Positions 11,804 through 16,314 of a stretch of 64,000 nucleotides of DNA are shown here, in pieces. Each line of letters begins with the position of its first letter. Position 1 is the stretch's first letter. A program made the position numbers and the translations under genes. This DNA is from a phage, in sequence record PZ445437.1, one strand, 5' to 3'. The notes beneath the pieces are model-generated. The model had not been told where the DNA came from. It searched no databases and saw only the letters and a list, made by a program, of their open reading frames with translations.

Positions 11804-11918
11804 ATTTTACCCTTAATTGATTAACCAAGCATTGATAAGCACTAAACTATATTGCGAATAAAATTCTGGACCAAAATGAAAAATCATATCATTTATAGTA
11901 TCCATAATGTAATTCAAT

Positions 11919-12389
11919 TTAATCATGTGTCCACACCCCATCGGTATTTGACCAAAGTCGCTGATTATCTGATCCTCGCCACAGCTTTTTAGTCGGAAGA
12001 TTTTTCTCATACTTCCCATCAATAATAACATCAACATATTTAAGCATTTCTAGTTGTTTAATATCTTCAAACTTATATCCTGTCCACAACCAAATGCTTT
12101 TATTGGGATAAAGATTTTTAATAGTTTGAACCACAGAGTGAATCACGTCTCTGTTATCAGGATAAAGAGGGTCACCTCCGGTTATAGTCAATCCTTCTAT
12201 ATAATCATTATTCAAACATTCAATTAATTGTTCTAGTGTTTCACCAGTGAATGGAACACCATTTCTAGCATTCCATGTTGATTTATTATAACACCCTTCG
12301 CATTTATGCAAACAACCTGTAACGAAAAGAACTGTCCTGCATCCAGGACCATTAACAAAGCAGCACGGGTATATTCTGTCATAATTCAT
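11919..12389 (-). CDS. nrdG: anaerobic ribonucleotide reductase activating protein (radical SAM)
   Basis: 156 aa; radical-SAM CxxxCxxC motif (CLHKCEGC) and N-terminal MNYDRIYPCCFVNGPG. Confidence 0.9.
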   Translation of the reverse strand: MNYDRIYPCCFVNGPGCRTVLFVTGCLHKCEGCYNKSTWNARNGVPFTGETLEQLIECLNNDYIEGLTITGGDPLYPDNRDVIHSVVQTIKNLYPNKSIWLWTGYKFEDIKQLEMLKYVDVIIDGKYEKNLPTKKLWRGSDNQRLWSNTDGVWTHD

Positions 12390-13218
12390 TTATATATTTC
12401 CAATTATAGCCTTCAACACTTTTACGTTCGCCATTTAAACATTTTAAAATATTTCCTTTGCTAGAAATATTAAAATATTTTGCTGCGTCTGGTATATAAT
12501 TAAATGTTTTTAAAAGAACACCATCTTTATATGCGCCAAATAAATTAAGAGTATATTTTTCTCGAAGACGCTGATGTTTCCTTTTCATAACCTCAGGATT
12601 TGCATACGCCAACTTCAATGAATTTCTGTGTTTTTCTTTTACTTCAGGTTTTTGCATTGCTAACTTAGTTAGCCTGGAAATTTTATTTCTAACTTCGTCA
12701 GTTTTCATTGCATTTGACAAATTTAATAAAGTTTTATTTCTAACTTCAGGTTTTTGCATTGCTAGCTTAGTTAGTTCTCTATGTCTTTTTCTAAAATCGT
12801 CATCCTTCCATATATTTTTCGATAATTTTGACATAGAGCGGTGAAATAATTCCTTTTCACTGGAATACAATTTAAAAATTTCATCCAATTCATCCGCATT
12901 AAATCTATCGGTATTCGAGTTTATCATTCTATGAAAGGCATAACACATTTTACTATTGCTTGTTTTAGCTAAATAGTAATGAGCTAACGCATGGTCATAA
13001 TATGACAAATTAACAATATTCCATTTATCTGTTTTATATTCAGGAAATATAGATTTGGGAAGCACGTGATGTGCTTCCGTTTTTCCTTTTATTTTAGGAT
13101 TATTATAATTTTTTGTTATCAAATCAACATATGACAATAGTAAATCATTATTTTCTTCAAATATTAAAGATAATTTATCATTCACAAAATCGCAAGGATA
13201 AAATCTATCATAATTCAT
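12379..13218 (-). CDS. mobD: HNH-family homing endonuclease-like protein MobD
   Basis: 279 aa between nrdG and nrdD; HNH-like EAHHVLPKS...HALAHY; repeated basic motifs; N-terminus MNYDRFYPCDFVN copies the nrdG N-terminus. Confidence 0.75.
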   Translation of the reverse strand: MNYDRFYPCDFVNDKLSLIFEENNDLLLSYVDLITKNYNNPKIKGKTEAHHVLPKSIFPEYKTDKWNIVNLSYYDHALAHYYLAKTSNSKMCYAFHRMINSNTDRFNADELDEIFKLYSSEKELFHRSMSKLSKNIWKDDDFRKRHRELTKLAMQKPEVRNKTLLNLSNAMKTDEVRNKISRLTKLAMQKPEVKEKHRNSLKLAYANPEVMKRKHQRLREKYTLNLFGAYKDGVLLKTFNYIPDAAKYFNISSKGNILKCLNGERKSVEGYNWKYINEL

Positions 13219-15032
13219 TGGTGTTTAACCCTATGCATGATTTCTTTATTTTTACCGAGATTAAATCCGCGTTCGTTCGGATTTCCCAAATAACCACATG
13301 TTCTTCTTATTGTGTTCATCTTTTTAGGATCAGTTTCTCCACAAATAGAACAAACAAATCCGTTTTCAGTAGGAGTCATTTCATGGGTACTTCCACATGT
13401 AAAACATTTATCTACTGGCATATTAACACCAAAATAATCTAAATGTTGTGCAGCATAATCCCATACGGCCTCAAGACCCTTTAAGTTATTTTTCATATCA
13501 GGAAGTTCAACATAAGAAATGTGACCACCTGTCGCAATGAAATGATATGGCGCTTCACGAGAAATCTTTTCAAACGGAGTAATATTTTCTTCTACTGAAA
13601 CGTGGAAACTGTTAGTGTACCAGCCTTTATCGGTAACATCTTTTACACTTCCATATTTTTCTGTATCAAGTTTACAGAAGCGATAACAAAGGTTTTCAGC
13701 AGGAGTAGAATACAAACTAAAAGCAAACCCAGTTCTTTCAGTCCACTGTTTAAGACGAGCATTCATTTTAGTTAAAATTTCTCGTCCAATATCACGACCT
13801 ACAAGAATATTCAATTCGTGAATACCAATGTATCCTAGAGACACTGAACTTCTGCCATTTTTAAATAACTCAATTATATCGTCATCAGGTTTAAGACGAA
13901 CCCCGAATGCACCTTCTTGGTAAAGAATAGGAGCAACAGTTGCTTTAACTCCTTTTAAGGAACTAATTCTACACATCAAAGCTTCAAAACACAAATCCAT
14001 TCGCTCATTGAACAATTCGATAAATTTCTGTTCATTGAACTGTGTTCCAATATAAGAATCTAATGCGATACGAGGAAGATTCAGTGTTACAACACCAAGA
14101 TTATTACGTCCATCAAGAATTTCATTACCAGTCGAATCTTTCCATACGCTCAAGAAACTACGGCAACCCATCGGAGAAACAGGAACAGATGAACCAGTGA
14201 TAGCTTTATTGTTCTTAGCTGAAATAATATCAGGATACATCCTTTTGCTTGCGCACTCTAGAGCAAGCTGTTTAATATCATAGTTCGGATCGTCTTTATA
14301 AAGATTAACACCTTCTTCAACAAACATAACAAGCTTAGGGAAAATAGGAGTTATCCCATCACGACCAAGACCTTTAATACGATTTTTCAGAATTGCTTTC
14401 TGAATCATTCGTTCAGTCCAGTCAGTTCCCGTACCAAATGTAATTGTTACAAAAGGCGTTTGTCCGTTTGAACTAAAGAGAGTATTTACTTCATATTCAT
14501 AAGCTTGGAATGCATCGTATACATCTTTTTCTGTTTTAGATTGAGCATAATTCAGTGCATCGGCGATTTGCCATTTTTCTGCATCCTCAATATGTTTTGC
14601 ATAGGTGCGTTTAACATAAGGAGAAAGTACTTTATCTACATTAGCAAAAGTCGTTCCGCCGTATTGATGGGAAGCAACCTGTGCAGTAATTTGTGCCATA
14701 ATTGCAGTAGCAACTCCAATTGATTTAGGAGTTTCAATCTGCGCATTACCAAGCTTAAATCCGTTCTCAAGCATTCCTTTTAAATCTACTAAACAGCAAT
14801 TAGTAAAAGGCAATGATATACTGTAATCTAAATCATGAAAATGAATTAATCCAACATTATGGGCATTTACAATATGACTTGGAAGAATACGACAAGCGAT
14901 ATGTTTAGAAACAATACCGGCCATTAAATCTCTTTTTGTTGGAAAGACGCGAGAATCTTTGTTGGCGTTTTCTGTATTTAATTCTTTATCTTTATTTGAA
15001 ATAAAATTTAAAACATCTTTTTCTAAAGACAT
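13215..15032 (-). CDS. nrdD: anaerobic ribonucleoside-triphosphate reductase (glycyl radical enzyme)
   Basis: 605 aa continuous ORF; C-terminal zinc ribbon (CFTCGS...CSICG) and glycyl radical motif RTCGYLG. Confidence 0.93.
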   Translation of the reverse strand: MSLEKDVLNFISNKDKELNTENANKDSRVFPTKRDLMAGIVSKHIACRILPSHIVNAHNVGLIHFHDLDYSISLPFTNCCLVDLKGMLENGFKLGNAQIETPKSIGVATAIMAQITAQVASHQYGGTTFANVDKVLSPYVKRTYAKHIEDAEKWQIADALNYAQSKTEKDVYDAFQAYEYEVNTLFSSNGQTPFVTITFGTGTDWTERMIQKAILKNRIKGLGRDGITPIFPKLVMFVEEGVNLYKDDPNYDIKQLALECASKRMYPDIISAKNNKAITGSSVPVSPMGCRSFLSVWKDSTGNEILDGRNNLGVVTLNLPRIALDSYIGTQFNEQKFIELFNERMDLCFEALMCRISSLKGVKATVAPILYQEGAFGVRLKPDDDIIELFKNGRSSVSLGYIGIHELNILVGRDIGREILTKMNARLKQWTERTGFAFSLYSTPAENLCYRFCKLDTEKYGSVKDVTDKGWYTNSFHVSVEENITPFEKISREAPYHFIATGGHISYVELPDMKNNLKGLEAVWDYAAQHLDYFGVNMPVDKCFTCGSTHEMTPTENGFVCSICGETDPKKMNTIRRTCGYLGNPNERGFNLGKNKEIMHRVKHQ

Positions 15033-15844
15033 AATTCTAATTTATCCTTTTGAAATTCTTCGTCTAAATATGGGTTCCAACCCATTTTAAACCTTTTGAT
15101 GAAATTATCAATTCTAAATTTCGGTAAGTTTAAATCCGCAAAAATAGATGATTTACTTTTAAAATCTGGACTTAAATAATCATATAAAATTTCTGCGTAT
15201 TTTAACCATAATATACAAGTACCAGATTTAATTGCTCTCGGAGTTTTCCAAGGTTTTACACCATACATCGGATTTCCGCTTCCTTTATGCCTGATAGAAG
15301 ATGAAATTCCAATTTTAATTTTAGCTTCCTTTGTATGCGAAAATCCACGATGTGGATTTTCTTTCCAGTATTTTTTAGAAGCTTCTGATATTTTCTTTCT
15401 GGCTAAATTAGTATGATGCTTTCCATAAAATCCATGATTTTTGCCTTTATTACGATTTCTTTTAATCATGGTTATTGATTGCTTTTCTCTAGTTTCTTTA
15501 GAAGGAGAAATACCATATGTCGTAAATTTGCCATCAGCATATGCTAAATTAAAATACTCTTTATTCCATACATCTTTTTCTATATTCTTTTGAAATTCAG
15601 CTTCAATGCTAGTTATTTGTTCATCTCCGACTAATTGAAAATATAATATTTCAACTTTCGGCGTTTCTTTCAATAAGGCTTTTTGAAATTCGGAAGATGA
15701 CGAAGACGAATAATAAAATTTACCATTTTTATCAATAATATTCGTTCCATCAAAAGTGCAATTGGTTTTACTTCCAATGTAATAATATGGTGGGGTTTTA
15801 GCATTAATTCTATTAATAAATGATAGTTTATATACTACATTCAT
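15023..15844 (-). CDS. free-standing GIY-YIG homing endonuclease-like protein (Seg-like)
   Basis: 273 aa; N-terminal VYKLSFINRINAKTPPYYYIGSKT (GIY-YIG-type) and NUMOD3-like motifs (GKNHGFYGKHHT, GNPMYGVKP); 3' end overlaps the nrdD start by 10 nt. Confidence 0.65.
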   Translation of the reverse strand: MNVVYKLSFINRINAKTPPYYYIGSKTNCTFDGTNIIDKNGKFYYSSSSSSEFQKALLKETPKVEILYFQLVGDEQITSIEAEFQKNIEKDVWNKEYFNLAYADGKFTTYGISPSKETREKQSITMIKRNRNKGKNHGFYGKHHTNLARKKISEASKKYWKENPHRGFSHTKEAKIKIGISSSIRHKGSGNPMYGVKPWKTPRAIKSGTCILWLKYAEILYDYLSPDFKSKSSIFADLNLPKFRIDNFIKRFKMGWNPYLDEEFQKDKLELCL

Positions 15845-16314
15845 TTTAAACTCTTTCTAAGCTGCTTCTTAAATGAAGCTATTAATTGTGTTTTAGTGTC
15901 AGATTCATTATATTCAAATCCTCTTTGAAGCATCTCAGCCATCATTTCCTCTTTTCCTAAACGAGAAAATTCCTTTGATTTATCTCCAACGAAGTTAGGG
16001 TGAATATTATTTTGGGTGTAATCGGATTTTAAATAAGTAAGTAAATTTTCTAACCATTCAAGATAATCAACTCCTTGTCCCTTTAAGCCAGAACGATTAA
16101 ATTTATGCTTCATTTGACCTTCTGCGGCATTGCAGAGATTACAAAGCAATCCACGTACCTTTCCTGCTTTTGGTCCATTTAATTCATGGTCATGGTCGAG
16201 GTGATTAGCTTGAACATCAGGATTTAGTTCTCGTTGGCAAATTAAGCATTTACCATTTTGTGCATCATAAAATTTCTGTTTTTCTTCTTTATATAATTTG
16301 CCAGTCAATAACAT
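15841..16314 (-). CDS. 49: endonuclease VII (Holliday junction resolvase) gp49
   Basis: 157 aa; MLLTGKLYKEEKQKFYDAQNGKCLICQREL... with CxxC...CxxC zinc site and HLDHDH motif, as recalled for T4 gp49. Confidence 0.9.
   Translation of the reverse strand: MLLTGKLYKEEKQKFYDAQNGKCLICQRELNPDVQANHLDHDHELNGPKAGKVRGLLCNLCNAAEGQMKHKFNRSGLKGQGVDYLEWLENLLTYLKSDYTQNNIHPNFVGDKSKEFSRLGKEEMMAEMLQRGFEYNESDTKTQLIASFKKQLRKSLK

Follow-up and report, generated by a model that had tools for sequence, protein, structure and literature searches.

Among mobile endonuclease genes that occupy other genes, the fungal mitochondrial elements known as mORFs, described for atp6 of Allomyces macrogynus and for atp6, atp9, cox2 and nad3 of Glomus, carry a replacement terminus for the host gene (PMC3630166). 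In phage T4, the HNH gene mobA splits the topoisomerase gene 39/60 and comes with a 50-nt bypass element (bioRxiv 10.1101/2022.08.31.505936), and in Aeromonas phage Aeh1, mobE is inserted in nrdA, whose product consists of two polypeptides that reassemble (PMC3653736). The mob genes are the least understood of T4's homing endonucleases. Here, we analyze a mob gene located at the junction of nrdD and nrdG in a 64,000-nt stretch of phage DNA (sequence record PZ445437.1), hereafter called the window. The segment belongs to a Tequatrovirus (T4-like); across positions 11900-13500, its identity is 99.6% to Escherichia phage Paracelsus and 98.6% to Yersinia phage PST, and the minus strand carries every gene considered at the nrdD-mob-nrdG locus. 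According to the reading that we favour, and to which we assign a probability of about 75%, a start-less HNH mob gene and a recoded copy of nrdG nt 1-40 together form a cassette inside nrdG, leaving the resident nt 1-40 upstream and in frame with mob and restoring a full-length nrdG downstream.

The comparison with empty sites supports this reading. In mob-less Tequatroviruses, represented by DalCa (L001) and eight IMG/VR contigs (L005-L012), nrdD and nrdG are joined directly through ATGA, and nrdG opens with ATGAATTATGATAGATTTTATCCTTGCGATTTTGT[G/T]AATG followed by G. This opening matches the window's mob start in 39-40 of 40 positions, but not the window's nrdG start. Specifically, the upstream (5') copy in the window is identical to the nrdG start of L009-L012 (40/40) and differs by a single base from that of L001/L005 (39/40). 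The flanks of the window and L001 are nearly the same, with 1 mismatch in 300 upstream positions (99.7% identity) and 3 in 371 positions across nrdG nt 101-471 (99.2%). Within nrdG, the mismatches to the local empty site are concentrated at the very beginning, 8/40 in nt 1-40 vs 5/431 elsewhere (Fisher p=1.3e-6), and beyond ~nt 57 the gene is the local Tequatrovirus allele. As judged from these alignments, an 829-bp cassette lies inside nrdG, after nt 40 (codon 13/14), and its ends could fall at more than one place in the repeat, and perhaps in the 7-nt GTGAATG. The 829 bp are present or absent at one and the same site among close relatives, the behaviour expected of a homing element. An earlier note on this DNA had proposed that the insertion of an endonuclease gene left a footprint between nrdD and nrdG; the comparison with mob-less phages bears out the footprint, but moves the site from the junction into nrdG. 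That the entire nrdG behind mob might be foreign was also considered and rejected, the region beyond ~nt 57 being the local allele in both genera in which the cassette occurs. As a side observation, the NrdG protein of T4 (L004) is 79% identical to that of the window, as compared to 94-99% for other Tequatroviruses; the T4 gene, which lies beside T4's own mobC, may be a co-converted foreign allele.

The repeat that first drew attention to the locus is short and sharply delimited. The first 40 nt of mob and nrdG match at 31 positions (78% identity, with 11 nt as the longest identical run), and codons 1-13 specify 11 of 13 identical residues (MNYDRFYPCDFVN vs MNYDRIYPCCFVN), so that the resemblance of the two N-termini noticed earlier is borne out by both DNA and protein alignment. 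The similarity starts exactly at the ATG and extends to nt 40 (AATG), whereas the sequences before both ATGs are unrelated, as are those beyond nt 40. Because the bases preceding the two ATGs are unrelated, the ribosome-binding region is not duplicated, and the claim that the translation-initiation region of nrdG had been copied does not hold; only 40 coding nucleotides are repeated. When every 40-mer of the 64-kb window was ranked, from either strand, the next best matches were 26/40 and then 24/40, and no other 13-mer in the six reading frames reached 6/13. With background matches that much lower, chance, the alternative that the earlier note had itself named, is excluded. A variant of this explanation invokes a family motif, with T4-type Mobs natively beginning MNYxxIY and thereby converging on NrdG. 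T4 MobB indeed begins MNYLNIY, and T4 MobC (MNYDRIY followed by SNLVN) shares 7 residues with NrdG. The Mob of the window, however, shares 13 residues with NrdG, including the NrdG-specific YPCDFVN, its closest homologues do not start with MNY, and its gene matches the empty-site alleles of two genera at up to 40/40 nt, far above the best background 40-mer. Chance or convergence is thus contradicted for this gene, where we regard it as extremely improbable, but may apply to T4 mobC.

Occupied and empty sites in a second genus, Jiaodavirus from Klebsiella, reveal which of the two copies is the resident one. At empty Jiaodavirus sites (L022, L030), nrdG opens with MNFDRIYPSDFVN followed by GPG. 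At occupied sites (Roth04, L003; KP01, L045; ValerieMcCarty03, L046), it is mob that opens with MNFDRIYPSDFVN, here followed by DKLS, and matches the local empty site at 39-40 of 40 positions, and the nrdG behind it opens with MNYDRIYPCCFVN, so that the variant peptide of the window recurs in this genus. Taking both genera together, the 5' copy differs from the local empty site by 0-1 of 40 positions in the window, in PST and in the three Jiaodavirus phages, and by 2 of 40 in TB004, whereas the downstream (3') copy differs by 8-11 of 40. The 3' copies of Tequatrovirus and Jiaodavirus differ from each other at 4-6 of 40 positions, all of them synonymous, and encode an identical peptide in all Mob+ phages; their divergence matches that of mob beyond the leader, a body with 85% identity between genera. 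As in the window, nrdG of Jiaodavirus is the local allele beyond ~nt 57. Because the 5' copy resembles the local empty sites and the 3' copy is the same in both genera, the upstream copy is, on these comparisons, resident DNA, and the downstream copy travels with the cassette.

This assignment conflicts with the mechanism put forward in the earlier note, according to which an insertion between nrdD and nrdG duplicated the start in place and the copies then diverged. Two direct copies with 78% identity do flank the mob body, as such an event would leave them, but the 3' copy should then derive from local sequence. Instead, the Jiaodavirus 3' copies (MNYDRIYPCC) carry the Tequatrovirus-like residues Y3 and C9 and are 10-11 nt away from their own local allele (MNFDRIYPSD), and only 4-6 nt from the Tequatrovirus copies. 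Neither the near-identity of the 5' copies to local empty sites (0-1 nt, 2 in TB004) nor the unduplicated region before the ATG fits the proposal, and we consider duplication in place to be highly improbable.

The same between-genus alignments show the cassette to have moved between phage genera. Synonymous divergence (dS) between Tequatrovirus and Jiaodavirus is 0.83-0.89 for mob and 1.63 for the adjacent nrdG, and the lower value for mob points to horizontal transfer after the genera split. The ratio of nonsynonymous to synonymous divergence (dN/dS) of mob is 0.08 between genera and 0.09 within Tequatrovirus, indicating that the protein is under purifying selection. The gene was found in 31 of 50,697 phage records, 21 of them Tequatrovirus-like and 10 from Klebsiella phages, with hundreds of sites being empty or otherwise occupied, and it is present or absent among 96-99% identical phages of E. 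coli, Shigella, Salmonella and Yersinia. Searching 5.8 billion proteins returned only eight relatives of Mob, and scanning IMG/VR together with the JGI metagenome collection retrieved mob-less nrdG starts and one unrelated weak match, but no third lineage.

Mob itself resembles HNH homing endonucleases of the T4 Mob family. It matches phrog_655, labelled 'homing endonuclease' (E=5e-37), as well as phrog_12434, labelled 'HNH endonuclease' (E=7e-15). No substitution occurs in the family alignment (A2) at H50, H51, N67, H76 or H80, which make up the HNH (beta-beta-alpha-metal) catalytic motif. When compared to the PDB, the profile derived from this alignment recovered the HNH nucleases McrA (6ghc, E=2e-4), Cas8f-HNH and colicin E9, which were reached by the family profile only, as the single Mob sequence gave nothing meaningful against the PDB; likewise, the Pfam HNH models did not match the Mob protein alone. 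For the C-terminus, PF22083 (E=2.4e-4, 21.1 bits, cutoff 27) and PF07453 (17.3 bits) gave hits that do not reach the curated cutoffs. In addition, phrog_7140 and phrog_314 match residues 161-278, and the C-terminus can be aligned by eye with that of T4 MobC (GYxWKY). Separately, we observed that the two LTKLAMQKPEV repeats of Mob are encoded 102 nt apart and that a 242-aa database variant (P0003) is shorter by exactly one 34-aa unit, the loss that recombination between the repeats would cause.

Regarding its name, the gene had been called mobD in the earlier note. It resides between nrdD and nrdG, and T4 mobD is found at nrdC.11/mobD.1 (PMC2988022 Table 1), so the name is wrong. In PST, the HNH open reading frame (ORF) is annotated as mobC. 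Mob and T4 MobC (NP_049689) are 38% identical over 60 aa in BLASTP, have lengths of 279 vs 210 aa and differ in their N-terminal and linker regions; orthology to T4 mobC is therefore rejected, the genomic position being all that is shared.

How Mob acquired its N-terminus can be traced by comparison with homologues that reside away from nrdG. None of these proteins, namely P0004, P0005/P0006 (gene 47/46, T6-like), P0007, P0008 and the one of Gaprivervirus DK-13 (near gene 49), has the leader. The start of P0004, the closest relative outside the nrdG site, reads MKDLLKS and aligns with residues 12-18 of the window's Mob (VNDKLSL; alignment A2), so that the native mob start coincides with the fusion point. 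As far as these alignments go, the 13-residue leader is not native to Mob. Free-standing homing endonuclease genes (HEGs) possess their own start and lie between host genes, and here the insertion point is within the nrdG ORF. With GTGAATG followed by AT at the junction, nrdG codons 12-14 could have been joined through microhomology to a mob ancestor that started [A/G]TG AAT GAT.

In the arrangement found today, the nrdD TGA stop and the mob ATG overlap as ATGA (13215-13218), and the mob TGA is reached 8 nt past the nrdG ATG, so that the two genes share 11 nt; the overlap, which had been recorded before, is confirmed here (Table 1). We think that Mob is probably translated from the resident nrdG ATG, and thus carries a 13-residue NrdG leader, and that translation of nrdG subsequently restarts at the new ATG. 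After its first codon, the mob ORF has no in-frame ATG before codon 91. Alternatively, the 13 leader codons could be an untranslated remnant, with Mob starting internally, for example at GTG codon 12 or TTG codon 27, and no NrdG-Mob fusion being made. GTG codon 12 is in frame and the homologues begin at about this position, but it is not preceded by a Shine-Dalgarno-like sequence (TATCCTTGCGATTTTGTG), whereas the first ATG has the ATGA overlap and, in Jiaodavirus, is preceded by GAGGTAAGG, with a GAGG/AAGG motif 6-12 nt upstream. Moreover, the leader is free of stop codons in 6 of the 6 occupied loci that were read. Taken together, these features make an internal start unlikely. As a separate observation, KP01 (L045, 2300-2335) has a TA insertion in the 3' end of mob, whose stop is a TAA directly before the nrdG ATG; the insertion abolishes the 11-nt overlap, which is hence not essential. 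Leader capture for T4 mobC was rejected as unproven, given that MNYxxIY is also the native start of T4 MobB.

The second peculiarity of the locus is the recoded nrdG start. The 3' copy is changed at 9 of 40 nt, with positions 18, 24, 28 and 29 altered consistently in both genera. Among the encoded changes is D10C, which requires 2-3 nt changes and affects a residue that is Asp in 28 of 28 surveyed nrdG genes not linked to an HEG. Recoding may provide the occupied allele with resistance to Mob by destroying its recognition site, a possibility to which we give somewhat less than even odds; with no identical run exceeding 11 nt, it would also limit deletion of the cassette by recombination.

Several observations weigh against the favoured reading. 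The sequence at the insertion point, TTTGTKAATGGYCCTGG, is the same in the 3' copy, and any immunity must consequently reside 10-22 nt upstream of it. The MNYDRIYPCC allele occurs in 77 phage records, including behind the GIY-YIG gene segH in T6 and many others, and in Shigella phage ESh24 (L049, 1971-2080) an HEG-less nrdD-ATGA is joined to the IYPCC allele. Found with segH and in ESh24 as well, IYPCC may be an ordinary allele of the lineage in which HEGs settled. The ESh24 junction looks like what remains when the repeats recombine in their first 11 nt, which are identical, and the cassette is lost, but it could also be the ancestral allele. Given the presence of IYPCC outside Mob phages, immunity is somewhat less likely than not. 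Furthermore, a GTG lies in frame at codon 12 and may be the start that Mob uses, and all occupied sites may go back to a single fusion event, in which case the conserved reading frame is not independent evidence. Finally, T4 mobC is listed with the activity 'ND' and its target as unknown (PMC2988022).

The same data bear on an explanation that retains the cassette but makes its 3' copy non-adaptive, being the co-converted flank of the donor lineage, with the repeat as a by-product of an illegitimate or microhomology join. It would account for IYPCC behind segH, where the T6 sequence (L048, segH at the junction) is identical to the window's 3' copy at 41/41 nt, as well as for the HEG-less ESh24, and, with GTGAATG followed by AT at the junction, an original M-N-D-K-L start would agree with the way MKDLLKS of P0004 aligns. 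It is less easily reconciled with D10C, which takes 2-3 nt changes at a residue that is otherwise Asp in the 28 non-HEG-linked genes, and with a peptide that is constant despite 4-6 synonymous changes, suggesting that the variant is at least maintained by selection. In addition, IYPCC adjoins an endonuclease gene in all but 1 of the 60 matches listed. We therefore view a purely non-adaptive 3' copy as conceivable but doubtful. In its favour, SegH is reported to cut the genome that encodes it as well, in which case immune alleles would not be required of HEGs at this site.

Returning to the favoured reading, Mob is predicted to cut or nick a mob-less nrdG near its 5' end, upon which a co-infecting Mob+ genome would be the template from which repair copies the cassette. 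Homology would be provided on the left by nrdD together with the resident 40 nt and on the right by the body of nrdG; since the resident 40 nt would belong to the left arm, the leader would always be of local sequence. Mob would then be read from the resident nrdG ATG that overlaps the nrdD stop, and nrdG would be re-initiated at the cassette-borne ATG, coupled to the termination of mob. The recoded copy might confer self-immunity together with protection against repeat-mediated deletion. More tentatively, and with a probability well below even, the locus may represent a distinct HEG strategy, in which a start-less gene would seize the start codon and upstream coupling of its target and pay with an immune, recombination-resistant, recoded 5' end; nrdG expression would depend on mob in an addiction-like manner, and the D10C allele would be shared by the competing Mob and SegH.

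The features of the locus are compiled in Table 1. The palindrome that borders the insertion point on its 3' side may belong to the nuclease target; a similar, imperfect palindrome is seen in empty-site alleles (GGTCCTGGCTGCAGGACC). Scanning for sigma-70 promoters returned 10 sites vs 11.2 in shuffles, thus no excess.

Table 1. Features of the nrdD-mob-nrdG locus and its surroundings (positions refer to the window)
Feature	Position	Strand	Remarks
Gene 49	15841-16314	-	
seg-like GIY-YIG/NUMOD3 ORF	15023-15844	-	Between gene 49 and nrdD
nrdD, anaerobic ribonucleotide reductase (RNR) large subunit	13215-15032	-	Intronless, 605 aa; annotated nrdD in near-identical phages
mob ORF, HNH homing-endonuclease-like, 279 aa	12379-13218	-	mobC position, PST type
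Upstream (5') copy: resident nrdG nt 1-40, mob codons 1-13 (+1 nt), MNYDRFYPCDFVN	13179-13218	-	
829 bp extra vs mob-less relatives: mob codon 14 to stop plus replacement nrdG nt 1-40	12350-13178	-	Compared with L001, L005-L012
HNH core (TEAHHVLPKS...WNIVNLSYYDHALAHYYLA), residues 47-84	12967-13080	-	
Two LTKLAMQKPEV direct repeats, NUMOD3-like linker	12640-12774 (12742-12774, 12640-12672)	-	
C-terminal NUMOD-like / I-HmuI-like helix-turn-helix DNA-binding module (predicted)	12403-12510	-	PF22083, PF07453, phrog_7140, phrog_314
Downstream (3') copy: recoded nrdG nt 1-40, MNYDRIYPCCFVN, functional nrdG start	12350-12389	-	
mob stop / nrdG start overlap, 11 nt, ATGAATTATGA	12379-12389	-	
nrdG, anaerobic RNR activase (radical SAM), 156 aa	11919-12389	-	Pfam Fer4_12 E=9e-49, Radical_SAM
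Palindrome GTCCTGGATGCAGGAC, nrdG codons 14-19	12334-12349	-	Directly 3' of the insertion point

Some further observations concern the neighbourhood of the cassette and related junctions. The seg-like ORF upstream of nrdD starts at the exact ATGA at which nrdD begins in phages lacking that ORF (ESh24, T6), and the N-terminus of the nrdD behind it is heavily recoded (MSLEKDVLNFISNKDKELNTENANK vs MTIEKEIEGLIHKTNKDLLNENANK; 5' end, 14940-15032). This represents a second endonuclease-linked divergent 5' end in the operon, albeit without leader capture. Two unrelated endonuclease genes, the HNH gene mob and the GIY-YIG gene segH, are linked to one nrdG 5' haplotype. In T6, the annotated start of segH appears to be too late, as the GIY-YIG motif (YYIIYKITN...YIG) can be read from ATGCATAGG, which overlaps the nrdD end; the window also contains this 9-mer, which there specifies M-H-R five codons ahead of the nrdD stop, and T6 nrdD has a diverged C-terminal tail. 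In the Jiaodavirus loci L003, L022 and L030, a 77-aa ORF (MLEKPMKQVDWNQLSEWG..., MazG-like in one record) separates nrdD from nrdG and extends 29 nt into the start of nrdG or mob, so that nrdG of Jiaodavirus would be coupled to this ORF and not to nrdD.

The locus yields a testable hypothesis for a T4-type mob gene, comprising a predicted target at nrdG nt ~15-55, four candidate immunity positions and a diagnostic N-terminal peptide, and natural pairs of occupied and empty sites are available in two genera. For annotation, the locus explains why genes here are mislabelled or mis-started by pipelines: one Klebsiella record has a pair of 'activating proteins', and in several T6-like records the annotated nrdG start is too far downstream. 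A duplicated nrdG start is unmentioned in Edgell et al. 2010, in the 2013 phage RNR survey and in the 2022 mobA preprint.

Within T4-like phages, the nearest counterparts are mobA/gene 60, mobE-nrdA of Aeh1, and the seg and mob genes that spread with co-conversion. Like the cassette described here, mobA is a Mob-family HNH gene inside a coding sequence, accompanied by additional sequence through which the interrupted gene can again be expressed, and its element is exchangeable with other endonuclease types (bioRxiv 10.1101/2022.08.31.505936). At gene 60, however, the host protein is split in two and translational bypass is employed, whereas NrdG is kept in one piece, with codons 1-13 resupplied and no bypass. 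The insert at gene 60 reportedly also protects against MobA cleavage. In Aeh1, a Mob-family HNH gene likewise resides in a ribonucleotide reductase coding sequence of a T4-like phage with function retained (PMC3653736), but the nrdG of the window is not split.

T4 mobC and segH share with the window's mob the nrdD/nrdG junction, the orientation and the promoter-less arrangement. T4 mobC additionally overlaps its two neighbours in the same manner, as ATGA at the nrdD stop and by 11 nt at the nrdG start, and both Mob proteins match phrog_655; segH phages carry the same IYPCC nrdG allele. Yet the 210-aa MobC has only the limited similarity given above and begins with MNYDRIY, which is also a native Mob-family start (MNYLNIY in MobB), so that leader capture is not demonstrable for T4 mobC. 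SegH, in turn, is a GIY-YIG protein whose own start overlaps the nrdD end. With the intronless homing of SegF, SegG and MobE (class: PMC2988022), the locus has in common the presence/absence polymorphism at one site and a short divergent tract in the adjacent gene; these classical free-standing genes are intergenic and have their own start, whereas the mob gene of the window lies within its target ORF and has none.

The closest analogue overall is the mORFs. In both systems, the endonuclease ORF is placed in phase within the end of a host gene, a foreign, diverged terminus keeps that gene whole, and the native terminus is retained alongside and matches relatives without the element (PMC3630166). 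The phage cassette thus presents terminus replacement of the mORF type, at the 5' rather than the 3' end: the mitochondrial elements replace the 3' end and leave the native C-terminus downstream, often unexpressed, whereas in the phage the native N-terminus remains upstream and is apparently reused as the start and leader of the endonuclease. The two differ further in the T4-like phage host, in the type of nuclease (HNH vs LAGLIDADG or GIY-YIG) and in the much shorter repeat (40 nt). Replacement of a gene terminus in the manner of mORFs hence occurs in phages as well, mirrored at the 5' end, where it would double as a source of translation for a start-less gene.

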